IMG/VR virus record: IMGVR_UViG_3300020576_005257
Coordinates: 32,001 to 96,000 of that record
Length of the DNA: 64,000 nt
Direction: 5' to 3' (one strand)
Source of the DNA: a virus
Lineage: Duplodnaviria > Caudoviricetes
Within the stretch, counting starts at the first letter, position 1. Every line of letters begins with the position of its first letter. This document shows positions 2-55,396 of the stretch, in pieces. The notes below the pieces were generated by a model. It was not told the origin of the DNA and made no database searches. It worked only from the letters and a program-made list of their open reading frames with translations. The position numbers and the translations under genes are program-made.

Positions 2-127
2 AACTCAACAGAAAAATATTTTCAAGTATTTCCTCAATTTTTTGATGTAGATATTATTCGTTTTATAAATAAGAAATACTGTTACTCAACTGTTCTTGAA
101 CAGTTTATTTTTTTAGATGACTTATAA
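2..127 (+). CDS. 3' part of small aromatic-rich hypothetical protein (5' truncated by window edge)
   Basis: Frame open from 2 to TAA at 125-127 (..KKYCYSTVLEQFIFLDDL*). The YxTVLEQF ending matches the next ORF (YDTVLEEF). Not in the ORF track. Confidence 0.6.
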   Translation, partial: NSTEKYFQVFPQFFDVDIIRFINKKYCYSTVLEQFIFLDDL

Positions 128-284
128 AATATTTGGAAATAGCTGGCCTTCATTTGACTACTATAAAATTGACTTACTAGATAGTAAGTCAATTTTTGTT
201 TCTAGAAATAGGAAACATTTCATTTTGTTTACCTTATCTGACCTTTCCTATGATACTGTACTAGAAGAGTTTTATATGATATGA
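117..284 (+). CDS. small aromatic-rich hypothetical protein (55 aa)
   Basis: Own translation MTYKIFGNSWPSFDYYKID...LSYDTVLEEFYMI*. ATGA overlap with the ORF at 281; shares FDY and Y-x3-LEEF motifs with neighbours. Confidence 0.65.
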   Translation: MTYKIFGNSWPSFDYYKIDLLDSKSIFVSRNRKHFILFTLSDLSYDTVLEEFYMI

Positions 285-463
285 AATACATAAAATTTTT
301 TGATCAGCTTTTTGTTGAGACTGTTTTTGATTATCGAACTAAAAGTGATTCTAGATTTTATTTAAATATATATCCTAGTGTCACCATTAAAAACTCAATA
401 AAATTTGAGAAAAACCTAAGTTTTACATATAATTTCTTATTTGAAGAATTTACTTCACCTTAA
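281..463 (+). CDS. small aromatic-rich hypothetical protein
   Basis: 60 aa; FDY and YNFLFEEF motifs of the same mini-family. Confidence 0.65.
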   Translation: MKYIKFFDQLFVETVFDYRTKSDSRFYLNIYPSVTIKNSIKFEKNLSFTYNFLFEEFTSP

Positions 464-513
464 AAAAACATTTTTGTTAACTTTAAATTATTATTAGGAT
501 AAAATAAACTACC

Positions 514-870
514 TTGAAAACTGAGCTACTTAGATCTAAATATACTGAAAGAATCTCTACTCTTGATGATGAAGTAAAGAATGATATCGAAGAATATGTT
601 AATTCTTTAAGACTACTAAACTCTTTACTTATGTCTGAAACCGGTACTGCTAAGTCAAGAAAACTTAGAAGAAGTATGTGGCATGATGGTAAGACAAGAT
701 GGTTTCTTGATGATGTTATCGTTGCAAGAGAAATAGTTGCTGTTAATAACCAATATTACTCTTATGAGATTTATGACCCTTATAAAGAACCAAAACAATT
801 ATGGGTAACTGCTGGAAGTTATAAAGATTTTTGTGAGACTGTTGAAAAGGAATTATTAGAACTAAAATGA
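514..870 (+). CDS. hypothetical protein
   Basis: 118-aa ORF (TTG start); ATGA overlap with next gene. Confidence 0.6.
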   Translation: MKTELLRSKYTERISTLDDEVKNDIEEYVNSLRLLNSLLMSETGTAKSRKLRRSMWHDGKTRWFLDDVIVAREIVAVNNQYYSYEIYDPYKEPKQLWVTAGSYKDFCETVEKELLELK

Positions 871-1595
871 CAATGCAAACTAGGCCACAATTAGCAGGAT
901 ATCCACTCATTTCTCAAACTGTTGGACAACTTATAGCAGGTTGCAATTCATTTGAACAGGAAACTACCCTTCATGAACTGCACAAATACTATACTAGTCC
1001 AGGACGGTACTATCATAATTTAACTCATATAGAGAAAATGCTTGGTTCTTTCTTGTATATATGTGAGTATTTTAAACTTAACGTTTCTTGTGAGACACTT
1101 ATAGCAATACTGTTTCATGATGCTGTTTATAGTATCGGAAAAACTGATAATGAGATCAACTCTGCTAAACTTGCTTTAGATTTTATCGTCAAATATAACA
1201 TTCCAGTCAATTCTGTAATTGTTGAAGAATTTATTTTAGCTACTAAGAACCATTTAATACCAGATAACCCAACACTAAAACCTACTAGTCCTTTCGATTG
1301 GTTAATATTAGATCTAGATCTCGAAATTCTTTCATCTAAAAGATCAGACTATGAACAATTTGGTGCTGATATCTATCGTGAGTATAATGGCTCTGAATAT
1401 CCTTCCACTACCAATCCATCTCACATATCTTATGTAAGAGGTAGAATAAGAGTTTTAACTGGTTATGCAAAACGGAAGGAGTTATATACCTCTCTTCCCT
1501 TCTTCCAGAAAGAAGAAACAGCAAAAGCCAATCTTTGGTGGGAAATCAATTATTGGTCTTCATGGTTGAAGCAAGCAGGATTAGCTGTACAATAA
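867..1595 (+). CDS. HD-superfamily metal-dependent phosphohydrolase (COG4339-like)
   Basis: RYYHNLTHI...LFHDAVY...NEINSA...ILATKNH...LDLDLEIL...IYREY motif series. Confidence 0.85.
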   Translation: MTMQTRPQLAGYPLISQTVGQLIAGCNSFEQETTLHELHKYYTSPGRYYHNLTHIEKMLGSFLYICEYFKLNVSCETLIAILFHDAVYSIGKTDNEINSAKLALDFIVKYNIPVNSVIVEEFILATKNHLIPDNPTLKPTSPFDWLILDLDLEILSSKRSDYEQFGADIYREYNGSEYPSTTNPSHISYVRGRIRVLTGYAKRKELYTSLPFFQKEETAKANLWWEINYWSSWLKQAGLAVQ

Positions 1596-8557: not shown

Positions 8558-9212
8558 ATCTTATTGTGGACTAGTCTTAAAGTCTTGGCCTGATTTAGAA
8601 GAAACAGACGAACTTCAACGTTTGAGGGATCTTGTCAAACGTTTATCTAATATTGATCATTTTATTATTGAGGAAGCTATTTTATTAGCTGGACAGTATC
8701 AAAGAAAACGCCCTTTGTGGTATACCAAGCATACTTTAGTTAATACTAAAGGAGTAAAAGAAAGCTTACTTAGAACTGTATCCAAAAATTTTCAACAAGA
8801 TTCTAGTTATTATGGTGACTTGTTTAATTTTAATGAAAAAGGTTCAAAAGTCAGTGCTATGTATTTTGGTAAAGTTTACTCTTTAACATCAATGTATAGC
8901 TCAATTTTTGTTGTAACTAGAAAAAACTATTTAGAGTTTATTGCTGCTGTTGGTTCTCCAAATATCGAAGAAGTAGAGCGGCTTGTACCTGATTTTGAGT
9001 TCCTTCCAATTGATCAATCTTGGTGTTTATTGGCTCCAGGATTTAGTGCTGTGGATGAGCATGTTGCTATGTCACCAATATTATGTCCTATATCATTAGA
9101 AACATTTATTTATACTTATTATTTACAACAACAAATGAGATACAGCGGTAATAATCTTGTTAAAAAAGGAGTTATTTATGCAGATGCTAAAAATAGAGAA
9201 AGAATCGGTTAA
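8532..9212 (+). CDS. conserved-Cys paralog family member 3 (Cys replaced by Ser)
   Basis: YFGKVYSL...VTRKNYLEFI...WCLLAPGFSA...CPISLETFIYT. Confidence 0.45.
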   Translation: MAREKLMHKSYCGLVLKSWPDLEETDELQRLRDLVKRLSNIDHFIIEEAILLAGQYQRKRPLWYTKHTLVNTKGVKESLLRTVSKNFQQDSSYYGDLFNFNEKGSKVSAMYFGKVYSLTSMYSSIFVVTRKNYLEFIAAVGSPNIEEVERLVPDFEFLPIDQSWCLLAPGFSAVDEHVAMSPILCPISLETFIYTYYLQQQMRYSGNNLVKKGVIYADAKNRERIG

Positions 9213-9960
9213 AACGGAACTAACACAAGAAAATAAATCTGTAAGAACTCCAGTTCCTAACCCTAAACTTAGAGCTTACTCGGGAGTAAATTTAGATCAC
9301 ATACTTTTAGAATCTCCAACTTCTAAATTTGAAGAAGAAATTTTTAATACTTTGAAAAGATTTCCTCATACTGGAGATTATAAAGTTTATAAATGTCTTT
9401 CTGTTGTATATCAGAATTATTATTATGATACTTTCAAAAATTTTACTAATATTACCTTAATACCTTGTAAAGTAGCATTATTACCGAAAGATGTTACTAT
9501 AGATTCTTTTAAACAATCTTCTTCTTTATATTTTGCTCCTGGTTCGTTTAAAAGAAAAAAAATAGATAAATCTAAATATATTCAACTTGGTCAATGTCAG
9601 TATCAAGATGGTGAAATTTATATAACTTACTTTGGAATTTCTTATTGTATAGAAATTAGATCTATGAAAATAATTCTAGCTTCTACTCAAGACTACTTAG
9701 AATTTTTAGAGGCTATTGGTTGTATTAATTTGAATCTTGAAAAAGAGACTTTGGTTAAAGAATCTATCCAAGTAATTGGATCCTCATTTTGTAATGTAAT
9801 AGATGGAGAAGGTGCTCATATTTTTACAACACCTTTAACTAACCCAACACCATTTTTTACTTATTTGTGTACTACTTTACTTGGCCATCTAACACACTAT
9901 CTACGAGTAAAAGATATTGCTAAGCCTTTAGACTCTAGATTCAAATCAAATGTTGAATAA
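9157..9960 (+). CDS. conserved-Cys paralog family member 4
   Basis: YFGISYCIEI...DYLEFL...VIGSSFCN...TNPTPFFTYLCTTLL. Confidence 0.45.
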   Translation: MLKKELFMQMLKIEKESVKTELTQENKSVRTPVPNPKLRAYSGVNLDHILLESPTSKFEEEIFNTLKRFPHTGDYKVYKCLSVVYQNYYYDTFKNFTNITLIPCKVALLPKDVTIDSFKQSSSLYFAPGSFKRKKIDKSKYIQLGQCQYQDGEIYITYFGISYCIEIRSMKIILASTQDYLEFLEAIGCINLNLEKETLVKESIQVIGSSFCNVIDGEGAHIFTTPLTNPTPFFTYLCTTLLGHLTHYLRVKDIAKPLDSRFKSNVE

Positions 9961-9963
9961 AAA

Positions 9964-10917
9964 ATGAAACCTCCTCTTACTTATCATACTCAATTAGTTT
10001 TCTTTCCTCAACAAGGTGAAAACTTAACACCTAAAGAAATTCACTTAGGAGAATTTCTAACAAATCCTGGTCATTTTGCAAATCATAAGTTTTCATTTGC
10101 AGTTAACAAAGATGGAATTCTTTATTCTTTTGATGAAGTTTTAAAATATGCTTTAAAATCTAATGAAGAACTTGTTGAGGCAGTATTTAGTCGTGGTTCT
10201 TTGTCTCCTTATCCTAATGTTTATTTTTCTTCTTTACCTATAGAAGAACTAAGAAAAGAGATTACTTTTCAATTACCAGTCCAAACGTATGATTATTTTG
10301 ATGCTCTTAAAGTAAGAAATATTAAAGAAACATTTATTGAAAATTCAGCTGAAGACTTTCTCAAAAGTTTTTCTCATCTTCCCCATTTACAACAACTTTC
10401 TATGAAAGCTTTTCCTGTTGAAGTTAGGCAGGAAGTTTACAATACTAAGTATCATTATAAACTAGGTTGTCCTTCTACATTTAAATTTAAACACGGAGAA
10501 AAATCATTCCAAAGTTTTTCCAAATATAAGCTAAATAAAGCCGCCCACAAACTTCTTCTTCCAGATAAATTTTCTACTTCTTATTTAGGCCCAGCTTACT
10601 TTGTTTCTTTTGGTGATTTAAATCTATATATAGTTGTAGCTAAAAAATCTGATTATCTTAAGTTTCTTAAGTGGCATATTTCTAAGTTTAAGTTTTGGAA
10701 CTATTCAAAGATTAAAAAGCAGTTACCTGCTGGGGACTATGTTCTTATTAGTACTTCTTTCTGTGAGAGATTTGATGATTGTAAAGATGGTTCACCACCA
10801 CTTCCACATCAAAGAAATATGACCTTAGATTTATTCCTTTCAACTACTCTTGTTATATACATTAAACAGAAGCTTAGATCTTCTCTGATGTTAACAGGAA
10901 TTGTTTTTTCTAAGTAA
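9964..10917 (+). CDS. conserved-Cys paralog family member 5
   Basis: YLGPAYFVSF...DYLKFL...DYVLISTSFCE...LPHQRNMTLDLFLSTTL. Confidence 0.45.
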   Translation: MKPPLTYHTQLVFFPQQGENLTPKEIHLGEFLTNPGHFANHKFSFAVNKDGILYSFDEVLKYALKSNEELVEAVFSRGSLSPYPNVYFSSLPIEELRKEITFQLPVQTYDYFDALKVRNIKETFIENSAEDFLKSFSHLPHLQQLSMKAFPVEVRQEVYNTKYHYKLGCPSTFKFKHGEKSFQSFSKYKLNKAAHKLLLPDKFSTSYLGPAYFVSFGDLNLYIVVAKKSDYLKFLKWHISKFKFWNYSKIKKQLPAGDYVLISTSFCERFDDCKDGSPPLPHQRNMTLDLFLSTTLVIYIKQKLRSSLMLTGIVFSK

Positions 10918-13213: not shown

Positions 13214-13999
13214 ATGTATAACTTCCACTTAGTAGGAGCCGGGTCACTAGGTAGTGGCATCGCAATTGAAATCTCTCGCCGTCTTGCAGCTCTAACATGG
13301 CCAGCAAAGCTTGTTATTTACGATGATGATACAGTTGAAGAACGGAATATCTTCTCTCAAGATTTTCTTCCTTCTGACATTGGTAAAGCTAAAGCAGAAG
13401 CAGTAGCTGAGAAATGTGCTCAATACAACTTTGTGGAAGTTGAGTGGCAAAAGGTCCGAGTTGTTGAAGATAATATCAACAAGATTATGGAACTTGATCC
13501 ATTATCAATTATTATTGATGCAGTAGATAATATTGAAGCTCGCCACTTGCTTTGGTACCACACCCTTGCTACAGGTGTTCCTGTTATGCATATGGGAATG
13601 ACCCCAGAAGGAGCTGGTTTAATCAGTTGGACTTGTGAAACACATCATGATAGTTTCAATTTAAGTCCTATGAATATGACTGCTGAAAGTATTAAGCAGC
13701 TTACTTCTGCTCATGACAATAAAATGCCACCCTGCGAATTAAATGGTTTTAGATCTTTGATTTTGAATACCGTACTAGCAGGAGTAAATTCGTTATTTAT
13801 TGCTATTGGTAAAGATTCTTTAAAAGAAATCCAAATTGATGGTGAGCTTCAGGAGTCTCCTGGCACTCTCACTACTTGGAATACTCACATGAGGGGATTT
13901 GAACTTAATCCTCAAATTACTGCTGTAGTGCCTTGGCCAAAGAGTGAAGAGGAACTCTTTATCCTAGAAGCTCAAAGAATGGCTTTAGCAAATGCATAA
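13214..13999 (+). CDS. ThiF/MoeB/E1-family adenylyltransferase
   Basis: LVGAGSLGS nucleotide loop, IYDDDTVEERNIFSQDF, IGKAKAEA, IIDAVDNIEAR. Candidate thioester Cys in PPCE; no Zn-binding CxxC pairs. Confidence 0.9.
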   Translation: MYNFHLVGAGSLGSGIAIEISRRLAALTWPAKLVIYDDDTVEERNIFSQDFLPSDIGKAKAEAVAEKCAQYNFVEVEWQKVRVVEDNINKIMELDPLSIIIDAVDNIEARHLLWYHTLATGVPVMHMGMTPEGAGLISWTCETHHDSFNLSPMNMTAESIKQLTSAHDNKMPPCELNGFRSLILNTVLAGVNSLFIAIGKDSLKEIQIDGELQESPGTLTTWNTHMRGFELNPQITAVVPWPKSEEELFILEAQRMALANA

Positions 14000-16574
14000 T
14001 ATTGATCCACGGTTAGTAACTGATTTAGTTGCAGCTGTAAAACATAACTACGAACATAGAGGCTTACCCATGGCAAAAAAAGAAAATACAACTACTGAAC
14101 AAGTTATTGATAACACAGAGGAAAAAGTAATTATTCCTCCTGGGGATCAAGAAGCTGATACTCAAGAAGAAGTAGCCGTTGCTACTATTGATAAGAAGAA
14201 GGAAGAAGATTTAGGTGAAGTTTTTCCAAACGAAACTAATGTTTTAGTTGTTAGTCCTGGTTTAACTGATAAACATAAGTCTTGTCCATTTGGTGTAGTG
14301 AAATCTCATCACTATACTAATAATGGCGCATATCCTCCAGCCCTCCGGTATAAAATTTCATTCTTCCAGAACGAAGTTGAAGATTTAGTCGAATTTTTTG
14401 CGACTGAAGTTTATGACTTACAACGTATTCTTTCTGAAGATGTTCAAGTAGGGGATACTGCTTATCATAAACAGTCTGGAAAAGTTCTGAATATTACTCG
14501 TGTTACTGTAATTAACAATGAGGATAGAGCATTTGGTTGGTGGCGAGATGGAGTTACTGAAAAGTGTGAACATGTTTCAGTAAAAGATCTTTATCCACTT
14601 ATCAATTCCTTTACTGATCTTACTCAAAGAGGAAAAGTTCAACAAAGTGCTAAAGCTCCTAATACTTCAGCTTTGTTTACTTTGAACAACTCTAGTCCAT
14701 CTAAGGATTCAAGTAGTCAGAGTAGAATTGGTTATGGTGGAAGTTCTTCTAGTTCTGGTTCTGCATACTCTAGTACTAAAACTGGAATTCCAGTTATTGA
14801 TAATCATACTACTAGTAAAGATCCTATCTTAGTTGAAATCGTAGGTGGCGGTAAGTTTACTATTCAACTTACTCCTAAAGAACTTTTAAATGCAACAAAG
14901 GTTCTTGACTTTGAAATCATTGAATGCGGGGGAGATGATAATGTCTCTAAAGATGTTGTCAAACTTATCCTACCATTAGAACGGGCTAGATTTAGTAAAA
15001 CTACCAAAGAGGTACTTTGCTGTGCTTTTGATGCAACTAACGAGTATATGCAAACTATGGGCTTTGGTAAGCTTGGTTTTGCCGCACGAACTTGGTATAA
15101 AGCTCATCCTAAAACAGTCAGTAGTGGCCTACCAGCAGCGTTTACATTTAGTACTCTAAATGAACTAGTTGCTCCTTATGGCTTAGGTATTAGCCGAATC
15201 TTTATCAAGAAGGGGCTAGCTGCTTGGGAAGATACTAAAGCTTGGGAAGAGATTCTCGGAGTTAATCCTGCTGCATCTATGGATAAAACAGTATCTAACG
15301 CTGATTTTATTGATATGATGGGTGGGCCAGAAATGGCAGCTATGGCTGGTTATAATGTTAATGACTGGAGGTTGGAGTATGTAGATAATGTTCCTTCCGA
15401 TATTCCAAGAGTCGGTATGGCTGGTGCTAGTGGTGGATTTGCTTCTGGTGGGGGTCATGCTAGTTTCTACGAGCCCCGTCAACCCATGACAAATTGGACG
15501 ATGGCCTTACAATACGACAGGATTGAAAACTGCAATTGGAAAGGAGTTCCTCCAGTATTTGAATATGCTGATGGAGATTTTGTTCTGAATCTTGATATTG
15601 CTGAATGTCTTGATGTCAATGGAAAGAGACTCAAAGTTTCTGTCTATGACAATATGTCTATTGGACCAGATCCTAAAATTGGTTATTGGTGGGATCCTCC
15701 AACCTACAAAAGCTACACCCCGGCATCAAGCTCACATGGCGGGGGTCAGTCTCACTACAACTATGAAGAGTTTATGGGGAGCGACACAGAGCGTCCTAAA
15801 GGATCTCTTCCTTTAGGTGTGGAAAAAAAAAATCTAATAGACAAGAAAGGAAACTCCTCAGGGAGCAGCGGCGGATCAATAGCAGGAAACAGGAAGCTGA
15901 GCGAATGGATATCAAGCCGCAGCGACGAGGCAGAAGGTGTCGCAAGAATTCTCGCTAGTTTGACCCCTGGTGCTGATGAGGAACTGTCTATAATTCAAAA
16001 TGCTCTTTCTTATGACTCTATAAAAAAGATTGTTAAAACTCCTGATAAGCAGCCATTTTGGAAACACTCCAAAATGGCCCTTAAAAGGACATCTATTATC
16101 AATGCTGTAAAGTCAAGAAATAATCCTCAACTTGAATACATAGGATTGTTTACAGCTGCACTTGGTTATAATTTAGATTCATCAATTGATTGGGAATACT
16201 CTGATTTTCATTATGAGAAAAGAAAAGTTGACGTAATTGTTGATAAATTACTAATTGCATCTAAAAAGTTTGAATTTATTCAATGGTTTGATCTTTTAGT
16301 TGAATCTGATATTAACTCTGGTATAACCATGATTCAAGAGTTGGAAGGTGGTCTTGTCACCTTCCTTGAACTTATTCAAGATGGTGCTACTAGAGCTTTA
16401 ACTGATGTTCAAATTGAAGAAATGTTTATGATTGATCTTGAACCAATCATGGCCCTTCTTCATAAAGCTACTGTAGTAGAAAGAGCTGTTGTTCTTCTAC
16501 GATTAGCAGAACAGGAACCAGAAGAGATTATACTTTTCATGTTAACTCTCTTCATTCTTTTTGCATACGTATAA
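13992..16574 (+). CDS. 860-aa multidomain protein: SH3-like barrels, Ser/Gly linkers, possible Cys-His peptidase-like core, helical C-terminus
   Basis: VQVGDTAYHKQSGKVLNITRV..FGWW (SH3/YodC-like); EVLCCAFDATNEY and GGGHASFY; low-complexity linkers. Confidence 0.45.
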   Translation: MHNIDPRLVTDLVAAVKHNYEHRGLPMAKKENTTTEQVIDNTEEKVIIPPGDQEADTQEEVAVATIDKKKEEDLGEVFPNETNVLVVSPGLTDKHKSCPFGVVKSHHYTNNGAYPPALRYKISFFQNEVEDLVEFFATEVYDLQRILSEDVQVGDTAYHKQSGKVLNITRVTVINNEDRAFGWWRDGVTEKCEHVSVKDLYPLINSFTDLTQRGKVQQSAKAPNTSALFTLNNSSPSKDSSSQSRIGYGGSSSSSGSAYSSTKTGIPVIDNHTTSKDPILVEIVGGGKFTIQLTPKELLNATKVLDFEIIECGGDDNVSKDVVKLILPLERARFSKTTKEVLCCAFDATNEYMQTMGFGKLGFAARTWYKAHPKTVSSGLPAAFTFSTLNELVAPYGLGISRIFIKKGLAAWEDTKAWEEILGVNPAASMDKTVSNADFIDMMGGPEMAAMAGYNVNDWRLEYVDNVPSDIPRVGMAGASGGFASGGGHASFYEPRQPMTNWTMALQYDRIENCNWKGVPPVFEYADGDFVLNLDIAECLDVNGKRLKVSVYDNMSIGPDPKIGYWWDPPTYKSYTPASSSHGGGQSHYNYEEFMGSDTERPKGSLPLGVEKKNLIDKKGNSSGSSGGSIAGNRKLSEWISSRSDEAEGVARILASLTPGADEELSIIQNALSYDSIKKIVKTPDKQPFWKHSKMALKRTSIINAVKSRNNPQLEYIGLFTAALGYNLDSSIDWEYSDFHYEKRKVDVIVDKLLIASKKFEFIQWFDLLVESDINSGITMIQELEGGLVTFLELIQDGATRALTDVQIEEMFMIDLEPIMALLHKATVVERAVVLLRLAEQEPEEIILFMLTLFILFAYV

Positions 16575-16758: not shown

Positions 16759-17223
16759 ATGAATCACTCTAAGATAGATTTAGAAATTCTATTAAAGATT
16801 TCTGAGATTACTGGGAAGAAGTTTTTCTCTCCCAATTCCTCCAGACTGGAAGAATGTAGAGATCAAATTTTTGATCACTTAATTGATCTTTATTTGGATA
16901 GTAAAAAAACTGGTTTTAAATTATCTGAGTCTTATTGTTGGAAGGTTGCTATAAATCAAGCTTGTACTTGTTATCGAAAGATTAATAAAAGATCTTTTGT
17001 AGGTAATCTAGATTACCTAGTTGCTTCGTATCCTACAGAAAACTCTCTACTTGATCAAATTCACTTATCTATCTTAGCTAATAGTAATGACATAGATGGT
17101 GAAATAATTAATTTGTTAGCTGAAGGATACAAAAGAAAAGAAATTTGTAAAGAATTGAAGATAGTACCAAGTACCCTTAATACTAGGATTGATAGGAATA
17201 GGGGTACAAAATGGAAACTATAA
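16759..17223 (+). CDS. ECF-type sigma-factor-like protein
   Basis: Region-2-like LSESYCWKVAINQACTCYRK (cf. FSTWLYRIARNxxIDxxRK) and region-4 HTH EIINLLAEGYKRKEICKELKIVPSTLNTRIDR. Confidence 0.7.
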   Translation: MNHSKIDLEILLKISEITGKKFFSPNSSRLEECRDQIFDHLIDLYLDSKKTGFKLSESYCWKVAINQACTCYRKINKRSFVGNLDYLVASYPTENSLLDQIHLSILANSNDIDGEIINLLAEGYKRKEICKELKIVPSTLNTRIDRNRGTKWKL

Positions 17224-18587
17224 TCTACATTGGTGGGGAAATTGCTATCAAGAATTGTCCAACACATATTGCTCAGCAATTAAAGTTTCAAGCTACTTTA
17301 CCCAACCCTAAATACTATATGTGGGAAGCTAAAGCTTCCAAGAATAGTTGGTATAAAGATAATGTCTTACAACCTGAGAGAAACTATGTATACTGGAGGG
17401 AGAGTAAAGGTAATTTATATTTACCCAGAGGTATGTGGGATGCTGTTCTTTCTCTTTTACCAAATGCTAAAATTGTATCTTTACTAGTAGACCCCAAACC
17501 AGTTTCTCCCTTCCAGTTTAATGGTAAGTCATGGTATGGTCAAGCAGAAGCAGTAGACTCTGCATTACAACATAATTTTGGTTATGTACTAGGTCCTACT
17601 GGAAGTGGTAAAACATCTATAGGAATCCAAATTGCATGTAAACTTGGTTTAACTACTTTATTTATGGTTCATACTGATGCTTTATTACAGCAAGCTTATG
17701 AAAGAGTAGAAAAGTTTACTGGGTATACTCCTGGTTTAATAGGTGGTGGTAACTGGAATGTTAAAGATTTTACTATTGGTACCTTTCAAACCATATATAA
17801 AAAAGATTGTAGTTCTATTAAGAACAGCTTTGGCTTGGTAATTGCTGATGAATTTCATCATATGCAAGCTGAAACCTTTTTTGCAGCCGTTAGAAAGTTT
17901 AACTCTTTACATGCTTATGGTTTAACAGCTACTGATACTGGTAAGATGAAGTATATCAACTTGGCTCTTGGTCAGAAAGTAGCTGAAGTTGATAGAAAAG
18001 GTTTAGTTGAAGCTAAAACTATTTTGGAGGCTGAAGTATATGTAATCAAAACAGGATATAAAACTAAAAAAGAATATGAGAACTACGATCTTGCAAAGTT
18101 ATATACTGAGTTAGCTTCCTCTCCCAAAAGAAATAGTTTTGTTCTTGATCTTATAAAGAGCATACAGCCTGGAAGAAGAACTGTTATTGCTTCTCATAGA
18201 ATTGATCAACTGGATTGGTTTTATGAGCAATTAAAAGAATTTAATCCTGTATTATATCATGGAAAATTAAAAACCAAACAAAAAAAAATCTCTTTTGATA
18301 GAATGCAGAATGATGATGATAATCGTATAGTTCTAACTACTGTTCAGATTATTCAAGAAGGTTTTGATGCCCCCCATTGGGATCAATTAGTTATGGCTAC
18401 TCCTATTGGTGGGAGAGATGGCGTAGAACAACTTATTGGTAGAGTTGTTAGGAAGTCAGAAGGTAAGATGACTCCAAGAGTATTTGATCTGTTAGATAAT
18501 TCAATCTTAACAGAAACATGGCTTAACAATAGACTAAATAGATACGAGAAACTAAATGCAAAAGTCCACTTCGACAAAACGTTTTGA
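17211..18587 (+). CDS. superfamily 2 helicase (XPB/UvsW-like)
   Basis: GPTGSGKT, DEFHH, GLTAT, EGFDAP and QLIGRVVR motifs. Confidence 0.92.
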   Translation: METIIYIGGEIAIKNCPTHIAQQLKFQATLPNPKYYMWEAKASKNSWYKDNVLQPERNYVYWRESKGNLYLPRGMWDAVLSLLPNAKIVSLLVDPKPVSPFQFNGKSWYGQAEAVDSALQHNFGYVLGPTGSGKTSIGIQIACKLGLTTLFMVHTDALLQQAYERVEKFTGYTPGLIGGGNWNVKDFTIGTFQTIYKKDCSSIKNSFGLVIADEFHHMQAETFFAAVRKFNSLHAYGLTATDTGKMKYINLALGQKVAEVDRKGLVEAKTILEAEVYVIKTGYKTKKEYENYDLAKLYTELASSPKRNSFVLDLIKSIQPGRRTVIASHRIDQLDWFYEQLKEFNPVLYHGKLKTKQKKISFDRMQNDDDNRIVLTTVQIIQEGFDAPHWDQLVMATPIGGRDGVEQLIGRVVRKSEGKMTPRVFDLLDNSILTETWLNNRLNRYEKLNAKVHFDKTF

Positions 18588-19815
18588 ACCACTAACTTCT
18601 ATCCGTAGAATCAAGGATTATGAATTGCCTAAAACAATTCAACTTGCTGGGGAGGATACACCTATTCCAAAAAGACTTAGAAGAAAAGACATTTCTTATA
18701 CCTATATCACTGGTCCTGATGGAGCTGTTAAGCTTACTAGAACCTGTTGGATTACTCAGTCTTTATCTCATCTACTTAACGCTCAACGATTTAATGTTGA
18801 TGGCGAATTGTATGATAAAGAGAATCCTCATGGTTCCTTGACAACTTATGTTAATGAATTAATTCTAGCTAAAGAATGTGCTTTATCAACTATTGCTAGA
18901 ATGATTAAAGATGATGTTCTTAAAGACAAGAAAGGCCCAGGATTCATGGCTTTTGTACAATCTAATGAGAACGTTCCTGTAGGAAGTATTTTAATTACAG
19001 AAAGAACTTTACGGACTTTTCTAGTTCCACACAACAAAAATTGGAAGGATGCAAGTAAGGTCATCGTTACTAGGTTTCCCAACTTAGGTCCTAATACTAC
19101 AATTGAACTTAATTTATTAGTTCAAAAAGCTCCTAACAATTCCTATAAAGAGAATGCTTTAACTGAGCAATTAAAAGTGTTCTTGGATGAGAATATCGGT
19201 GTTCTTGAAGATGCAGAAGATTTAATGGATCCAGTATTCATTCACCCAGACATTTTGAAAGATTGTTTACAGGGTGATGGAGACGGAGATACTGTTTATT
19301 CTGTTATTTCAGAACAGAATGGAGTAAATTTTACTGACCTATCTCTTCTTAGAAATCCTGGCGAAGATCAGTTATTTGAAGATGAAATTGAGAAAGCTTT
19401 ACAAAAAGCTTCCAGATATGACGGTAAAACTATTTCTAATTATTTACCTCAACTATTTGATCAGTCTCCTATTGGTCCAGCCACCTATGCCATTAGAATG
19501 CAGGTTCACCAATTAGCTAAATCTCTTAAAGGAACTTGTGATCACCCAATGCATGAAGCTTGGAAACAGGTTGCTCCTTGGGCTATTGAGTTGATTGAGT
19601 TTGTTATGGATATTCGCAAAGGAGATTATACTACTGAGCAAATCCAAGATAATTTAAACCAAATTTCTGCGTGGAGTATAGCAATTAAAAAGGCTAAAGA
19701 AGATGGTTGTTGGTTTGCTAAAACTGTAACTACTAGTGATATTGGTTCCATAGAAGATTTTATAGAAACATTCCCAACACTTCAAGACTATGCAGATACC
19801 ATTTATGTTCAATGA
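18556..19815 (+). CDS. two-barrel RNA polymerase catalytic (beta-prime-like) subunit, highly reduced
   Basis: VIVTRFPNL (cf. VLLNRAPTL) and FIHPDILKDCLQGDGDGDTVY (cf. [20 protein letters not shown]); DxDGD at 19276-19290. Confidence 0.8.
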   Translation: MQKSTSTKRFEPLTSIRRIKDYELPKTIQLAGEDTPIPKRLRRKDISYTYITGPDGAVKLTRTCWITQSLSHLLNAQRFNVDGELYDKENPHGSLTTYVNELILAKECALSTIARMIKDDVLKDKKGPGFMAFVQSNENVPVGSILITERTLRTFLVPHNKNWKDASKVIVTRFPNLGPNTTIELNLLVQKAPNNSYKENALTEQLKVFLDENIGVLEDAEDLMDPVFIHPDILKDCLQGDGDGDTVYSVISEQNGVNFTDLSLLRNPGEDQLFEDEIEKALQKASRYDGKTISNYLPQLFDQSPIGPATYAIRMQVHQLAKSLKGTCDHPMHEAWKQVAPWAIELIEFVMDIRKGDYTTEQIQDNLNQISAWSIAIKKAKEDGCWFAKTVTTSDIGSIEDFIETFPTLQDYADTIYVQ

Positions 19816-20045
19816 AACATTTCATTAGCTCGTCATCCAAACCTAATTGTGCTTGTGGTAAAGAAGAACTTAATATATTTAGTTCTGAAGCTAGTCCTAT
19901 AGGGCTTTCAAATGATCTAGTTGATTTAAAGGAAGGATTTGATCCTTTCATTGTTAAATCTTTTTGTTCATGTGCTACAATACATACCTTCAAAGTTTTT
20001 GAAGGCAAGGAAAATCTCACTCCAATCTTCGTTAAACAACCATGA
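19812..20045 (+). CDS. small CxC...CxC Zn-ribbon-like protein between the RNAP subunits
   Basis: PNCACG...FCSCAT; ATGA overlaps with both RNAP-like genes. Confidence 0.55.
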   Translation: MKHFISSSSKPNCACGKEELNIFSSEASPIGLSNDLVDLKEGFDPFIVKSFCSCATIHTFKVFEGKENLTPIFVKQP

Positions 20046-21472
20046 GCGAACTCTTCAAAGTTAATTGTTCTCCGTATCTAGGCAGTGTTGAACAGCTGTC
20101 TCCTGAAATTGTTACTCTTTTATCTACCAGAGGAGATGTACAAGTTGCATCTTCTCCTAAAATAGTAACACCTATTCTTACTTATGACGAAGATGGGGAT
20201 TTTACATTTACAAAGGCTAGTACTATTGTAAGTAAAGCAATCCCAGAAAATAAGTATTACTCAGGATCTAAGGAATATTCTCCTGAACGGATTGCTGATG
20301 TAATTTACTCTAGAACACAAAAGAATCTAGAATCTTATCCTTTTCTACCTACCTACAAAAATGGAGATAAAACATCTTATCATCCATTAGCTCTTTTAAA
20401 TTATTACGATTTAGTCCGGTTACAACCAAGCCCCGAACTTGCTACTAGACTTATGAGAGAAGATTTCAATGGTCAAGGTAAACTAAAGGCTAGTAGTTTA
20501 GACAAGTTAAACCAAAGATTTTTTCACTTTTTTAAGAAAGAACTGGATCTTTATTCAGTTCCAAAAAGAGAAATTGGTACTTTCTGTAATATAGCTTATA
20601 CAGGAAACTTCAATCGACTAGCCTGGCATCTTGGTTTTGGAATGGCAAACTGCATTCCAAGAGATAGAATTGCTAGAGAGGCAAGTAGTCTTAAATCTGC
20701 TGAACGATTTCTAAATCCAGTTGAAGTACCTTTTGGTGATTTTCCTAAATTCTGTGGTCCATATATTACTATGCTTCGTGTAGCTTTTATAGCTACTGAA
20801 ACAAGTATGCTTGACTCAGGAGATCTCATGCCAAGTGCTTTTCCTAGAATTGCTTGTAAGCTATCCAAAATTCACAAAATTAAGGATCTAAAAGCTGCAC
20901 AAGAACAGTTTGGTTCCTTAAATATATCTAAACAAGCATCTAGAGCTGGTATTGAGTTGACTCATGATATTCTGGAAGAGTATGACGAAACTCATTTGCA
21001 TCCTGGTGCTATAAGATTTGTATTTCCAGGTGGTCTTAAAGTTAATACTCACTGCTTAGATACTAAAATCCAAGCTTATACTAATGATCAAGAAGAAGTT
21101 GACTTGTTGCTTGATATTAGAAGTATTACTTCTAAAGGTGCTGCTGTACTTTTAGCTATGCAGGATCCAAGATTTGCTGGAAAAGATATGAATTTTGAGG
21201 AGTTACGTCAAGTTATTCCTCAACTCAAAAAACAACAAGTTAGGGTAGGTGCTATGAAGTACTCTGCCTACGTTGGCTGGTTACCAGTGATGAGACCTGG
21301 CCAACGCTATACTGATTTTAGCAAGCCTACTAATGACATTCCAAATGACATTATTGCTAAAGCTATTATGAAACAACGATTTGACATCCCAGAAGAGCTT
21401 GAAAAGCACTATGCTGAGATGGTTCAATATGTCTCCTCCCTTACGAGTGAAATCAATGCTATCCAAAGTTAA
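20042..21472 (+). CDS. two-barrel RNA polymerase beta-like subunit, highly reduced
   Basis: Motifs in canonical beta order: LRVAFIATETSMLDSGDL (cf. VAFMPWNGYNFEDSIL), PGAIRFVFPGGLKVN (cf. GDKMAGRHGNKGV), DQEEVDLLLDIRSITSK (cf. GTPVDIVLNPLGVPSR), AYVGWLPVMR (cf. VTVGYMYMLK). Confidence 0.7.
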   Translation: MSELFKVNCSPYLGSVEQLSPEIVTLLSTRGDVQVASSPKIVTPILTYDEDGDFTFTKASTIVSKAIPENKYYSGSKEYSPERIADVIYSRTQKNLESYPFLPTYKNGDKTSYHPLALLNYYDLVRLQPSPELATRLMREDFNGQGKLKASSLDKLNQRFFHFFKKELDLYSVPKREIGTFCNIAYTGNFNRLAWHLGFGMANCIPRDRIAREASSLKSAERFLNPVEVPFGDFPKFCGPYITMLRVAFIATETSMLDSGDLMPSAFPRIACKLSKIHKIKDLKAAQEQFGSLNISKQASRAGIELTHDILEEYDETHLHPGAIRFVFPGGLKVNTHCLDTKIQAYTNDQEEVDLLLDIRSITSKGAAVLLAMQDPRFAGKDMNFEELRQVIPQLKKQQVRVGAMKYSAYVGWLPVMRPGQRYTDFSKPTNDIPNDIIAKAIMKQRFDIPEELEKHYAEMVQYVSSLTSEINAIQS

Positions 21473-22661
21473 CGTTACCACTGCTCTTCGTCTTGCCCAA
21501 CGGTGCTATAATCTTCAACAACTAACGGGTGAAAGATATGTTCTTAACTTGTTAGGCCCTGCTGGACAAGGAAAAACTGCACTTAATAATGATCATAGAG
21601 ATCATTTGGCTAATTTATTAGTAAATCGTACAGTTGCTTTGAAGTCTTATAGACTTAATCAATCAGATCCTACCGATCTTAAGGGAGTTCCTATGTATCA
21701 TGAAAATGAAGATGGACTCAAAACTTGTGAATGGGCAGTTCCTCAAATCTTTCCAGTTATTGGTTCTCCTCATTCTGGAAAGGCTGACTTTACTTTATTC
21801 TTATTTGATGAGTTTAATCAAGCTGCACAATCTATGCAGAACTTGGCTGCTAATGTTATTGATCAAGTAGTCGGAGATCAGACTCTTGATTATACACGTT
21901 ACCAGATTATCCTTGCTGGAAATAGGACTGAGGATGGTGCTGCTGTTTATGCTTTGCCTACTAATTTGAAAACTCGTCTTATTACAGTACAACTTGAAAA
22001 TACTTTAGATGATTGGATTAAATGGGCCACTCAAAATAATATTCATCCTGGTATTATTGGTTATCTAAAGAATTTTAGTATAGCTTTCAATGATACTACT
22101 TCAACTTCTGAGTATTCATCCCATCCTAACCCTAGAACCTGGCATCGTCTTAGTAGTGATATTACTTTCCATGACGATTGGGCAGCTGATGAAGATTCAA
22201 GAATCATGGCTATAGGTCTTCTTGGTGAGAAGGTTGGCAGTGCTTTTTATTCCTTCTTCCAGAAGTTCTCAGCTGAGTTTTCTATTGACAAAATCATGGA
22301 ACAAGGTGGTAAAGTAGAGATGAATTACAAAGAACTTGAGTTTGTATATACTATTATAGTTGAACTAGCTTATAGGGTAACTAAAATTCTACAAACTGCT
22401 ATGGAAAGTTTGTCACCTGATGATAGAAAAGATAGTGAGGCTGTATCCTCAATATTAACTCATCAAGATTACCAACATATTCTTAATGTTTATGATTGGC
22501 TCCATTCAGCTGATTTTCCTAAACCAATTAAACTTCTTCTAGGCACCTTTATTAATCAAACTGAGTATAATATGCTTATGAGATTAATTAGATTAGATCC
22601 CAAACTTGACAAAGCTGGTATTCAATATTCAGAGATAACTAAGCAGCTTCATGCTATCTAA
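21456..22661 (+). CDS. MoxR-like AAA+ ATPase
   Basis: GPAGQGKT, DPTDLKGVP, FLFDEFNQA, ILAGNR, NLKTRL and PNPRTW. The ATG at 21456 (MLSKVNV) is a more plausible start than 21381. Confidence 0.88.
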   Translation: MLSKVNVTTALRLAQRCYNLQQLTGERYVLNLLGPAGQGKTALNNDHRDHLANLLVNRTVALKSYRLNQSDPTDLKGVPMYHENEDGLKTCEWAVPQIFPVIGSPHSGKADFTLFLFDEFNQAAQSMQNLAANVIDQVVGDQTLDYTRYQIILAGNRTEDGAAVYALPTNLKTRLITVQLENTLDDWIKWATQNNIHPGIIGYLKNFSIAFNDTTSTSEYSSHPNPRTWHRLSSDITFHDDWAADEDSRIMAIGLLGEKVGSAFYSFFQKFSAEFSIDKIMEQGGKVEMNYKELEFVYTIIVELAYRVTKILQTAMESLSPDDRKDSEAVSSILTHQDYQHILNVYDWLHSADFPKPIKLLLGTFINQTEYNMLMRLIRLDPKLDKAGIQYSEITKQLHAI

Positions 22662-22667
22662 AAAACA

Positions 22668-23882
22668 ATGATTCCTGAATTTCGAGCAGAAATAAACTAT
22701 CCAGAAGCTAAGCCTGAGTGGAAACAGGCTCTTCTGGATTGTGTTGAGACAGATTTGTCTCAACTTATTCGTAATGCCCCTTGGGTTAGTATGATTCTAG
22801 CCAACTTAGAAGTCATAGGTATTACTTCTAGACTAGCTAATATATCTGTTAGAAGGCTTTCTTTAAATTGTTGGCCTAAAGCTGAAGGAAATGAGGCAGG
22901 TACTTGTTACTATGAGTACCCAAAACCAGAGAGATATACTTTGTTAAATCACTTAGTAACTCACTTAGTTTTCAAACACACCTCTATCCCAGAAGGATTG
23001 GATGACGGTTTAGTAGTAATTAGTCAGGATGCTACTGTTAACAACGCCATTAAGAATAGTGCTAATTCAAAGCTAAGTAGCTTCCCAGGACATATAACAA
23101 CTAATAGTGCAGGAGATACGTTAATTATTGGTGAGTTTGAAATTAAAATTCCCCAAATTGATTCTTTAGATTGGAAGGAACTTTATAACATTCTTTTTGA
23201 CCATGGTCTTGATACTACTGGTTGGGAATCTGATATAGAAAATGATCCTAATATTCTCCCTGAAGAGATAGAGAAGTTTGAGGATAAGGTCATTTCTGTT
23301 CTAACTCAAATGGAAGACAAGATCCCCGATCCTTATAAGAGACATTTATGGAAAATGTTAACTCCTAAGGTTACTTGGGCTGACAAAATAAGAATGATTC
23401 TTAATAGTATTGTTGGTAGAACTGATTTCTCCTACAATCCTAATCCTAGAAAAATTCATATTGGTATTCTTCCAACTATCACTAAACCTGCTGGTGGTAC
23501 AGTGTTTCTTGCTTTTGATACTTCAGCTAGTATGAGCAGAGAAGAAATTGAACAGGGCATTGCAGAAGCTAGACAAATCCAAAAACAATTTGGCTGTGCT
23601 ATGGAAATCATAGTTTGTGATCAAGAAGTTACTAAGATACATAGCTTTGATGGTTCTTCTGAACTTGGTTGGGCAGACTTAGAAATGCCTGGTCAAAGAG
23701 GAACAAGTTTTGTTCCAGTGTTTGATTACATAGCTGAAACTAAAGGACCAGCACCATCAGTTCTGGTATACTGTACTGATCTGGAAGGACACTTTCCTGA
23801 TAAAGGACCCAGTTATCCAGTTATTTGGTTAACCAAGAATCAAAATCATCCAGTGCCATTTGGTAAAATAGTACTAGTCTAA
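22668..23882 (+). CDS. DUF2201-type metallopeptidase-like plus vWA domain protein (MoxR partner)
   Basis: vWA MIDAS DTSASMS, GTSFVPVF, YCTDLEG, YPVIW. The N-terminal HExxH position reads HLVTH. Confidence 0.85.
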   Translation: MIPEFRAEINYPEAKPEWKQALLDCVETDLSQLIRNAPWVSMILANLEVIGITSRLANISVRRLSLNCWPKAEGNEAGTCYYEYPKPERYTLLNHLVTHLVFKHTSIPEGLDDGLVVISQDATVNNAIKNSANSKLSSFPGHITTNSAGDTLIIGEFEIKIPQIDSLDWKELYNILFDHGLDTTGWESDIENDPNILPEEIEKFEDKVISVLTQMEDKIPDPYKRHLWKMLTPKVTWADKIRMILNSIVGRTDFSYNPNPRKIHIGILPTITKPAGGTVFLAFDTSASMSREEIEQGIAEARQIQKQFGCAMEIIVCDQEVTKIHSFDGSSELGWADLEMPGQRGTSFVPVFDYIAETKGPAPSVLVYCTDLEGHFPDKGPSYPVIWLTKNQNHPVPFGKIVLV

Positions 23883-24658
23883 TGTCCCATAAAAGACCTA
23901 AATATAATCCTAAAGCCCAGACTAAAGTTCCAACTTTAGGCTTCTATAGGAAGGTTCAAAACTATGAACAGAATCAGATTAAATCTGGTTCTGTTCTCAT
24001 AGACAGAGTTTTATCATTAAAGAAAGGGGAAAGTTTACTTATTAAGACTGAACCTTATTCTGGAGGGTCAGCTGTATGTTTTGAATATGCCAGCTATTTC
24101 ACTAAAAATTTTGACGGGTACTGTTTATACATAGACTGCAATGATTCCTTCTTACCTTCCAGAACTTCTGATATTGATTTAGAAAAACTTATCCATATTA
24201 GGCCTAATTCTTCTCAACAGGTAATTGATGTTATAAAGGAATTTGCTGTTTTAGATAAGGAGTTTCTTATTATCTTAGACAATCCTTTCTTATTAAAAGA
24301 TGGTCCAACTATTAGTAATTTTCTTGTTACTATTAGAAAGATTCTTCCACATTGTACTATTATAGCTACTGAAAGAATATTAAAGAAACATACAGATGTT
24401 TGGAATAAAGTTTGTACTTTAGGTTTTAAACAAAGACATTACGTAGAAAGAGATTTGATTGGTCATACTATATCTCTGAAAATAGGTTTAGAAGAAATAG
24501 TACATTACTTATCTTATAAGTATGGTAGATTATCAAAAGTTTATGAGCATATGATTTTGGATATTGAAGAAAACAATAAAACCAAAGGTGATGTTTTTGA
24601 ATTTGACGGCTATGTAGTTAGAGGTTTCTGGTCAATGTTGAAAACTATTGAGATGTAA
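23882..24658 (+). CDS. degenerate RecA/RadB-like protein
   Basis: IKSGSVLIDRVL, EPYSGGSA (Walker A without Lys), CLYIDCNDSF, IDLEKLIHIRP, LIILDN. Confidence 0.65.
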   Translation: MSHKRPKYNPKAQTKVPTLGFYRKVQNYEQNQIKSGSVLIDRVLSLKKGESLLIKTEPYSGGSAVCFEYASYFTKNFDGYCLYIDCNDSFLPSRTSDIDLEKLIHIRPNSSQQVIDVIKEFAVLDKEFLIILDNPFLLKDGPTISNFLVTIRKILPHCTIIATERILKKHTDVWNKVCTLGFKQRHYVERDLIGHTISLKIGLEEIVHYLSYKYGRLSKVYEHMILDIEENNKTKGDVFEFDGYVVRGFWSMLKTIEM

Positions 24659-54918: not shown

Positions 54919-55396
54919 ATCCTATCTTGATTTATTAGACTTATTTACTTTATTCTTAGATTGGTCAGTACAAACATATGGTTATGATGGTTTTACTAGA
55001 GCCCATAATACTGTAGCTAGGACAATATACCTAGAAGAACTTGAAAATAAAAGAGAAGATTTAATACAATACTCTATATTATGGGATATGAGTCTATGGA
55101 TTCATGATGGTAATTATTTACATCATCCTAAAGAAACTTTCTTTGATTTATTAGAAGAACTCCAAATTACCAATTTCTCACCTGATGAGATTGCTCCCTT
55201 TTTGGTTTTTGACGAAATGCTTTTTGAAGGAAAAGCAAGTAAATATATGGTTGACTCTTTCGATAAGATAGGGTACTATCCAGTATTGAAAAACAAGTAT
55301 GATCTTTACTTAAGGTCACTTATTAATTTTGGTGAATTAGTTGGCGAAAAAGAAATTCTCGGGGATACAGGAAGCTCAACATCCGGAAACGATTAG
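54896..55396 (+). CDS. hypothetical protein
   Basis: 166-aa ORF upstream of the polymerase. Confidence 0.6.
   Translation: MNKQQKPKSYLDLLDLFTLFLDWSVQTYGYDGFTRAHNTVARTIYLEELENKREDLIQYSILWDMSLWIHDGNYLHHPKETFFDLLEELQITNFSPDEIAPFLVFDEMLFEGKASKYMVDSFDKIGYYPVLKNKYDLYLRSLINFGELVGEKEILGDTGSSTSGND

Follow-up and report, generated by a model that had tools for sequence, protein, structure and literature searches.

Two open reading frames (ORFs) of 419 and 476 amino acids (aa) in the IMG/VR virus record IMGVR_UViG_3300020576_005257 are predicted to encode miniature, unsplit homologs of the RNA polymerase (RNAP) subunits beta-prime (Rpb1) and beta (Rpb2). The two proteins very probably form a heterodimeric, Mg-dependent, DNA-templated RNAP that would give this phage host-independent transcription. 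The window, that is, the whole 64,000-nucleotide (nt) stretch that was analysed, comprises bases 32,001-96,000 of the 234,927-bp record, which is estimated to be 95% complete, and coordinates refer to the window unless another sequence is named. The evidence consists of predicted fold and short motifs because sequence methods were blank, and kinship to the beta/beta-prime lineage is visible only at the fold and motif level. A preliminary description, made from the letters of the DNA alone, had proposed a reduced two-subunit polymerase at this position. Its three ORFs (419, 77, and 476 aa) were confirmed by an ORF check, and a script check found R173, HP, D241/D243/D245, R325, and K333 exactly where it had placed them; these are not chance motifs, as they are invariant or conserved in homologs. 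The features of the two large proteins, with the basis of each call, are as follows.

18556..19815, + strand: 419-aa beta-prime/Rpb1-like catalytic subunit (predicted fold, invariant motifs)
18934..19320, + strand: double-psi beta-barrel (DPBB) of the 419-aa protein, residues 127-255 (alignment to DPBB proteins)
19072..19086, + strand: R173-F-P-N-L motif, counterpart of beta-prime R425-A-P-T-L (invariant in 33/33 homologs)
19276..19290, + strand: D241-G-D243-G-D245, predicted Mg-binding catalytic loop, counterpart of beta-prime D460-F-D462-G-D464 (Asp triad invariant in 33/33)
19471..19701, + strand: candidate bridge helix and trigger-loop-like hairpin, residues 306-382 (inferred from model helices, alignment ends, and invariant columns)
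20042..21472, + strand: 476-aa beta/Rpb2-like subunit (predicted fold, invariant motifs)
20759..21304, + strand: second DPBB, with an insertion, residues ~240-421 of the 476-aa protein (alignments of DPBB-only proteins)
21014..21040, + strand: R325...K333 basic pair, counterpart of beta K1065 and K1073 (conservation and spacing)

Fold and motifs of the two predicted subunits

The AlphaFold2 model of the 476-aa protein (predicted local distance difference test, pLDDT, 87.6; predicted template modelling score, pTM, 0.80) retrieved 319 Foldseek matches from the Protein Data Bank (PDB) at E <=1e-3, the best with an E of 1.9e-8. The best 50 of the 319 were all second-largest RNAP subunits, with poxvirus Rpo132 and African swine fever virus (ASFV) at the top at about 2-4e-8. 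VIA, a structural search independent of Foldseek and the most informative comparison for this protein, was run over 48,161 representative PDB chains, and only nine of these reached Z >=8 with this model, all of beta/Rpb2 type (Z 12.5-15.7): plastid beta (15.7), chain C of the AR9 non-virion RNAP (nvRNAP; 15.0), Pol I (14.8), chain C of the phiKZ nvRNAP (14.4), Pol IV, bacterial beta, vaccinia, ASFV, and Pol III. After a drop, the next scores belonged to crAss gp66 (5.4), RDR2 (5.1), QDE-1 (4.6), and P74 gp62 (3.9). Because of this ranking (Z 12.5-15.7 versus 3.9-5.4), the modelled enzyme is placed in the multisubunit, cellular-type beta/beta-prime clade.

The likeness of the 476-aa model to second-largest subunits reaches beyond the barrel, into the fork, hybrid-binding, and anchor regions, and VIA-align matched 371 of its 476 residues with Rpb2 165-1104 at Z 16.2. 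The AR9 and phiKZ beta-C chains cover residues 187-427 (root-mean-square deviation, rmsd, 3.1 and 2.7, respectively), while cellular beta/Rpb2 covers 1-428; since the phage chains start at 187 and the cellular ones at 1, the first 186 residues appear to correspond to the N-terminal half of beta. DPBB-only proteins align across residues 240-421 with 79-92 residues matched, and the barrel is considered to carry an insertion because only about 80-90 residues are matched across that span. Further matches of this model in BFVD were RNAP second subunits of giant viruses and of baculoviruses/nudiviruses (LEF-8 type). The best BFVD TM-score to the beta-like model (0.43) belonged to A0A172Q0S6, an uncharacterised 798-aa protein of the cultured 235-kb Acinetobacter phage vB_AbaM_ME3, which suggests, at the level of predicted structure, that this isolate encodes a polymerase subunit not recognised so far.

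For the 419-aa protein, the AlphaFold2 model (pLDDT 84.7) was compared with the PDB in the same two ways. The best 50 Foldseek matches were all RNA polymerases and nearly all largest subunits, with AR9 nvRNAP chain d first (3e-4) and Rpb1, Pol I A190, Pol IV, and bacterial beta-prime following, interspersed with P74 gp62, P32 gp64, and P23-45 gp96. VIA placed Pol I A190 first (Z 10.2, with 293 residues aligned over model 1-419), then Pol II Rpb1 (Z 9.8) and archaeal RpoA' (Z 9.5, model 24-330 on chain 45-842), and the whole model superposed on Rpb1/A190 at Z about 10-11, with chain residues 27-1699 against model 1-419. All non-polymerase VIA matches were double-psi barrels, namely p97/CDC48 N, PEX1 N, designed DPBBs, and VAT-N, and they map to residues 127-255 with Z 9.5-10.8, rmsd 2.3-3.0, and 82-87 residues. 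The DPBB that had been postulated for each protein is thus predicted in both, at residues 127-255 of the 419-aa protein and ~240-421 of the 476-aa protein.

The motifs lie within this framework in the order and spacing of the cellular enzymes. Escherichia coli (E. coli) beta-prime contains R425-A-P-T-L, H450-P451, and D460-F-D462-G-D464, and the phage protein contains R173-F-P-N-L, H230-P231, and D241-G-D243-G-D245; the distance from P to D is 10 in the phage protein and 9 in E. coli. An [HN]-P motif stands 10 residues upstream of the Asp triad in the homologs, as in beta-prime, and the R173 motif is separated from H230-P231 by ~33 inserted residues that vary among homologs and are modelled with low confidence. 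The loop itself differs, reading G-D-G-D-G-D in the phage and N-A-D-F-D-G-D in cellular beta-prime. In the 476-aa protein, the spacing R325-x7-K333-x20-D354-x10-K365 parallels K1065-x7-K1073-x21-D1095-x10-R1106 of E. coli beta, and it is therefore well founded to equate R325 and K333 with the lysine pair of beta. The preliminary description had drawn the same parallel for this pair, and it stands: K333 never varies, only R or K occurs at position 325, and the spacing is that of E. coli beta. It had also listed the beta motifs as occurring in order, a statement that we could uphold only for the K/R-K-D-K block and, tentatively, for the acidic residues D258/D261.

Behind the barrel, the 419-aa model contains helices at 306-324, 331-355, and 360-382. 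The alignments run over model 24..330 on archaeal RpoA' 45..842 and over model 68..375/379 on Rpb1 261..1107/1109, and the Rpb1 alignments as a group end at model 369-379 on Rpb1 1103-1109. These end-points put helix 306-324 at the C-terminus of archaeal A', in the bridge helix region, and residues 331-382 on Rpb1 up to about 1107. From these data, we infer that helix 306-324, with invariant I306 and T310, may be the bridge helix and that hairpin 331-382, with invariant E348, D352, R354, and K355 at its tip, may be the trigger loop. 

Conservation and sequence-level searches

Metagenomic relatives were found for both large proteins, 38 for the 419-aa protein and 18 for the 476-aa protein; all are nameless or 'hypothetical', and several lie on contigs of 215-251 kb. 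Alignment A1 holds 33 homologs of the 419-aa protein at 35-52% identity, and alignment A2 holds 18 sequences of the 476-aa protein. In A1, the invariant residues include R173, P175-N-L-G-P179, T181, T182, G240, D241, D243, G244, D245, and, towards the C-terminus, I306, T310, E348, D352, R354, and K355, and in A2 they include K333, D354, K365, G366, D258, D261, R209, R212, and E213; position 325 is R in 15 of the 18 sequences and K in the other three. A full HMMER pass over 1.84 billion cluster representatives yielded just 46 that belong to the family, and for 32 of these the E-value was below 1e-30. There is no fused form among the 46, as the longest is no more than 595 aa.

The more distant members retain the catalytic positions with some variation around them. 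Member P0100 carries R-Y-P-V-L and G-D-C-D-G-D and is directly followed by a 501-aa ORF, and the sister family P0105-P0109 (286-595 aa, metagenomic) carries R-F-P-A-T-T and G-D-V-D-G-D; the single contig recovered for the latter is not long enough to reveal a partner gene. The sister family, with the motifs 'GFMALAQANPN', 'RFPATTS', and 'MEGDVDGDLIF' and without a Pfam match, represents another unannotated beta-prime-like group.

Sequence-level searches gave uniformly negative results. Scans of the 419-, 77-, and 476-aa proteins against Pfam (to E 1), PHROGs (to E 0.1), and NCBIfam found no match, and phmmer and profile searches of PDB sequences with A1 and A2 returned nothing relevant apart from spurious flagellar cap and pentatricopeptide repeat (PPR) entries. 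tblastn of both large proteins against 50,697 GenBank phage records found nothing significant. When A1 and A2 were compared with single E. coli RpoC and RpoB sequences by hhalign, probabilities were <=1.3%; the best segment of the 476-aa protein, 340-364 on RpoB 1081-1105, falls in the expected register and is not significant (probability 1.3%). Smith-Waterman alignment of the barrel regions with E. coli was uninformative at such divergence. These results agree with the preliminary description, which had called the enzyme highly divergent and had foreseen that pipelines would leave its proteins as hypothetical: public sources name both of them 'hypothetical protein', and the Pfam, PHROGs, and NCBIfam entries are blank. 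In the literature, we found no description of the family, a statement that does not extend to the 23 two-barrel family alignments in Supplementary Data 3 of PMC10770324, which were not compared.

The whole genome was also searched for other polymerases. In six-frame translation, RNA_pol_Rpb1_1/2/5 and RNA_pol_Rpb2_3/6 found no match at E up to 10, while the same searches gave matches in 14/14 control genomes. A T7-type polymerase model likewise found no match, in a search made without a positive control, and a hidden Markov model (HMM) search of the 235-kb genome for a second cassette or paralogs found none.

The cassette, its neighbours, and the phage genome

The large genes and the small ORF between them form a translationally coupled cassette. 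ATGA stop/start overlaps connect the 419-aa ORF (stop at 19815) with the 77-aa ORF and the 77-aa ORF with the 476-aa ORF (20042-20045), and the 3' end of the helicase gene overlaps the start of the 419-aa ORF by 32 nt. The two large genes are co-inherited. Eight loci extend far enough to include both of them, and in every one the two barrels are carried by separate ORFs and the beta-prime-like gene precedes the beta-like one, which is the order given in the preliminary description. The remaining features of the neighbourhood are as follows.

16759..17223, + strand: 154-aa helix-turn-helix (HTH) protein resembling extracytoplasmic function (ECF) sigma factors, candidate specificity factor (weak SigZ/ECF and Pfam HTH matches)
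17211..18587, + strand: 458-aa XPB/Rad25-like superfamily 2 (SF2) helicase (Pfam, PHROG, and NCBIfam matches)
19812..20045, + strand: 77-aa Cys-rich mini-protein, candidate Zn-binding accessory subunit (conserved Cys, ATGA overlaps)
21381..23882, + strand: AAA+ ATPase (426 aa as listed; true start probably later) and DUF2201/von Willebrand factor A (VWA) protein (404 aa) (PHROG, Pfam)

The 77-aa protein contains the motif C13-x-C15-G-K ... C52-x-C54-x3-H58, of which C13, C15, C52, C54, and H58 are invariant in five loci, together with P71. An ORF in the same slot is found in relatives at about 40% identity, and it is Cys-rich in 6/8 loci; a larger Cys-containing ORF is present in L008, the slot ORF of L005 has no cysteines, and in L007 the slot is empty, with just 12 nt separating the large genes. 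The C-x-C-G-K element resembles the beta-prime zinc site C70-L-C72-G-K, which we regard as a lead only. In a three-chain complex prediction that scored the 77-aa chain only, the score was 0.00 and the chain's own fold was uncertain, a result that counts neither for nor against a partnership. Its sequence makes the 77-aa protein a candidate Zn-binding accessory subunit.

Upstream of the cassette, residues 57-149 of the 154-aa protein gave a weak SigZ/ECF sigma match (NCBIfam, E 0.01; E 4e-5 for the homolog in L003), and residues 109-146 matched Pfam HTH_7/HTH_23/GerE. In L003, the homolog (BLASTP E 1e-7) is directly upstream of the beta-prime-like gene. The 458-aa helicase matched Pfam ResIII (3e-22) and Helicase_C (3e-11), PHROG 16 (1e-56), and the NCBIfam XPB repair helicase (9e-20), and an XPB-like helicase is upstream of the cassette in L008 too; phages of the phiKZ type also show linkage between Rad25-like helicase and RNAP genes (PMC7824862). 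A ThiF/E1-like gene and the gene for an 860-aa protein (window 13214-16574) lie upstream of the cassette in the window, L003, and L005, with a weak partial match in L006. Homologs of the 860-aa protein also occur in L006 and L010.

Downstream, the AAA+ ATPase matched PHROG 1297 (1e-51) and its neighbour matched Pfam DUF2201 (metallopeptidase/VWA, 2e-21). This pair follows the beta-like gene in 6/8 loci, and a 258-aa ORF without a family match (window 23882-24658) is kept just downstream in six loci.

The genome has a low G+C content of about 34%. The polymerase cassette is contained in a plus-strand block at ~4-99 kb, and a minus-strand block at 99-196 kb carries structural genes. PHROG scans of the genome identified tail sheath, baseplate wedge, major head protein, portal, large terminase, and a GroEL homolog, and within the window they identified a family-A DNA polymerase (55341-57518) and a ribonucleotide reductase. 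Because of these structural and replication genes, the source is classified by sequence similarity as an uncultured contractile-tailed jumbo phage (myovirus) of ~235 kb with its own DNA polymerase. A search for exact 9-mers in 87 upstream regions revealed no convincing recurrent promoter motif. The phage-encoded GroEL-type chaperonin is at L016:14835-16517 (-) and matched PHROG 5725 at E 5e-126. The structural block also contains three giant, almost unannotated ORFs of 2683 aa (L017:9023-17074 -), 1568 aa (L018:1826-6532 -), and 2076 aa (L018:8009-14239 -); the first matches PHROG 20474, and residues 1375-1515 of the last resemble a RecE/Cas4-like nuclease.

Two further polymerase candidates were noted outside the cassette. 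A 1260-aa ORF at L020:8232-12014 (+), which is G000 196232-200014 and outside the window, contains 'VIYLNDIQAGAMVVDMDGDE' at residues 189-208 and, near residue 1020, 'GDKAVVH...EGKLIDVLMHINQSRSRGN', a stretch similar to the GDK...VDIVLNPLGVPSRMN block of beta. The ORF possibly encodes a single-chain two-barrel polymerase, judging from these motifs; it has no match in Pfam, PHROG, NCBIfam, or PDB sequences (phmmer), and hhalign against A1 and A2 found nothing. An adjacent pair of 213-aa and 593-aa proteins is encoded at L021:7824-8465 and 8561-10342 (+), or G000 211824-214342. The 213-aa protein contains 'DWDCDGD' and aligns weakly (BLASTP E 0.008) to the DMDGD region of the 1260-aa ORF, and no significant similarity was found for the 593-aa protein.

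Mechanism, alternatives, and relation to known polymerases

If the two proteins form an RNAP, the phage enzyme would transcribe part of its genome independently of the host enzyme. The Asp triad D241/D243/D245 would bind the catalytic Mg ions, and R325 and K333 would contact the RNA 3' end and the incoming NTP. Helix 306-324 may act as the bridge helix and hairpin 331-382, with D-I-R354-K355-G at its tip, as the trigger loop, and residues 1-186 of the 476-aa protein may replace the N-terminal half of beta, which is a separate subunit in phiKZ/AR9. Candidate accessories are the 77-aa Cys4 protein as a Zn clamp-like element, the ECF-sigma-like protein for promoter choice, and the XPB-like helicase for DNA opening or recycling. 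That the genome encodes its own family-A DNA polymerase and has no canonical RNAP domain match also counts in favor of a host-independent RNAP.

Several points weigh against this proposal. None of the sequence-based methods connects the two proteins with RNA polymerases. That they form a heterodimer, have the catalytic geometry, and are active is predicted, and further unrecognised subunits may exist. The bridge helix and trigger loop are positioned by alignment end-points alone. For the 419-aa protein, a Z of about 10 and a TM of about 0.25 would by themselves be middling; its assignment as a polymerase is nevertheless solid because the match list is exclusively composed of polymerases and DPBBs and because the invariant motifs are inside the barrel.

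The most substantial alternative is a larger multisubunit phage polymerase to which the two proteins would contribute just the catalytic parts, with other essential subunits (equivalents of phiKZ gp68/AR9 gp226, clamp or lobe pieces) encoded nearby or elsewhere; the 77-aa protein, the conserved 258-aa ORF, and the sigma-like protein are candidates. The enzyme would then still be an RNAP but not a two-subunit one; we consider this arrangement less probable than not. It is favored by the four to five subunits of all characterised jumbo-phage enzymes of this lineage (PMC7598289, PMC7824862), by the Cys4 mini-ORF between the two genes in most loci, by the conservation of the 258-aa ORF and the AAA+/VWA pair downstream, and by the sigma-like ORF that adjoins the cassette in two lineages. 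However, neither half of either cellular subunit lacks a counterpart, because the alignment with Rpb1/A190 takes in the whole 419-aa model and the 476-aa model aligns with the long stretch 165-1104 of Rpb2. Moreover, neither paralogs nor canonical RNAP domains were found elsewhere in the genome, and the mini-ORF is absent in L007, while its L005 version no longer has the cysteines. A split enzyme of the phiKZ type was rejected, since the beta and beta-prime homologs are each one chain and no further pieces were found in the genome. Whether two subunits suffice for the predicted enzyme seems to us evenly balanced.

Two other alternatives depart further from the prediction of a DNA-templated RNAP. 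It is very unlikely that the proteins form a two-barrel enzyme with another template or product, such as an RNA-dependent RNA polymerase (RdRP) of the QDE-1/RDR type, a primase-like enzyme, or a PolD-like DNA polymerase. Although the two-barrel superfamily includes RdRPs and archaeal PolD (PMC7824862, PMC10770324) and the cassette lies among genes for DNA metabolism (helicase, DNA polymerase, ribonucleotide reductase), the DNA-dependent multisubunit enzymes score Z 12.5-15.7 and crAss gp66, RDR2, and QDE-1 only 4.6-5.4, and the phage already has a family-A DNA polymerase. A PolD-like DNA polymerase or a primase was rejected because beta/Rpb2-type matches are far ahead and PolD chains are in none of the structural match lists. 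It is also very unlikely that the proteins are degenerate relics or structural proteins, with the barrel fold retained without polymerase activity and the motifs being coincidental acidic or basic loops. Sequence-profile methods recognise neither protein and G-D-G-D-G-D could be a metal- or Ca-binding loop, but the residues at catalytic positions are invariant down to ~35% identity and are kept in P0100 and P0105-P0109, motif spacing follows E. coli at four successive landmarks, and the fold matches reach far past the barrels. A chance acidic loop or Ca-binding motif was rejected on the same grounds of invariance, E. coli-like spacing, and fold beyond the barrels.

A bolder proposal extends the two-subunit RNAP to the smallest self-sufficient enzyme of the beta/beta-prime lineage. 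A ~100-kDa heterodimer, an ECF-like sigma factor, and an XPB-like helicase would then constitute a complete phage transcription machine near a minimal or ancestral core, and the genome may encode two more two-barrel polymerases of single-chain type (the 1260-aa ORF and the 213+593-aa pair) in a three-polymerase, host-independent cascade. We regard this as rather unlikely.

The non-canonical phage polymerases (phiKZ, AR9, YonO, crAss gp66, and P23-45) have reshaped views on minimal templated RNA synthesis and on the origin of the cellular enzyme. With the phiKZ/AR9 nvRNAPs (PDB 7OGP, 7S00/7S01), the present proteins share a phage origin, the beta/beta-prime lineage, high divergence, linkage to a Rad25/XPB-like helicase, and the lack of detected alpha/omega homologs. 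In phiKZ/AR9, however, beta and beta-prime are each two polypeptides and a fifth subunit is added, whereas here there is one chain each (419 and 476 aa). PHROG and BLAST show no similarity to the phiKZ/AR9 families, and homology search of the genome revealed one set, not a virion and non-virion pair of the phiKZ/AR9 type. With the large subunits of cells and giant viruses, the phage proteins share the subunit folds, the two double-psi barrels, and the motifs R-x-P-x-L...D-x-D-G-D and K-x7-K...D...K/R at nearly the same spacing. They differ in having about one third of the length (419 versus ~1400 aa and 476 versus ~1100-1340 aa), and the gene order beta-prime then beta is counted as a further difference from cellular systems.

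The single-chain enzymes (YonO of Bacillus subtilis SPbeta, gp66 of crAss-like phi14:2, gp64/gp96 of Thermus phage P23-45, P74 gp62, and QDE-1) are likewise small, non-canonical, encoded by mobile elements, and minimally decorated, and P74 gp62 and P23-45 gp96 are among the matches of the 419-aa protein. However, their two barrels share a single polypeptide and they make up the second major clade (PMC10770324), and the 476-aa protein scores Z 3.9-5.4 against them. Chaban et al. distinguished the two clades as multisubunit, cellular-type enzymes and single-chain enzymes of phages, plasmids, and RNAi (PMC10770324). The crystal chains of P74 gp62/P23-45 gp64 have about 590 residues (PDB 8f5m, 8f72; PMC10770324). 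Since P74 gp62 needs ~590 aa in one chain, compared with 895 aa combined here, the phage enzyme is not the smallest two-barrel polymerase, and the term 'near-minimal' of the preliminary description was overstated for two-barrel enzymes as a whole; the claim of minimality may hold within the multisubunit beta/beta-prime lineage.

Strongly reduced beta/beta-prime members are also found on other mobile elements and viruses, which we compared by description save for the BFVD matches. The RNAP of the yeast killer plasmid pGKL2 consists of ORF6 (~974 aa) and ORF7, with the beta-like and beta-prime-like parts fused in one chain, and the baculovirus RNAP (LEF-8/LEF-9) has four subunits and larger catalytic subunits. 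The killer-plasmid enzymes are counted in the two-barrel superfamily (PMC7824862).

If active as a heterodimer, the phage enzyme would provide a tractable model of a minimal catalytic core, a way to learn which decorations can be spared, and possibly a compact, orthogonal transcription enzyme that is probably insensitive to rifampicin-type drugs. The family also flags an environmental jumbo myovirus clade (contigs 197-251 kb) as likely independent of host transcription, a feature that Pfam, PHROGs, and NCBIfam do not reveal. Unlike every characterised member of the multisubunit clade, the predicted enzyme combines similarity below the reach of profile HMMs and no further detectable subunits with unsplit large subunits of about one third the usual length. 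It is predicted to be an enzyme of the beta/beta-prime lineage, not of the YonO/QDE-1 lineage, compressed to 419 + 476 residues while keeping the barrels, a scaffold for fork and hybrid binding like that of beta, and, probably, a bridge helix and a trigger loop.

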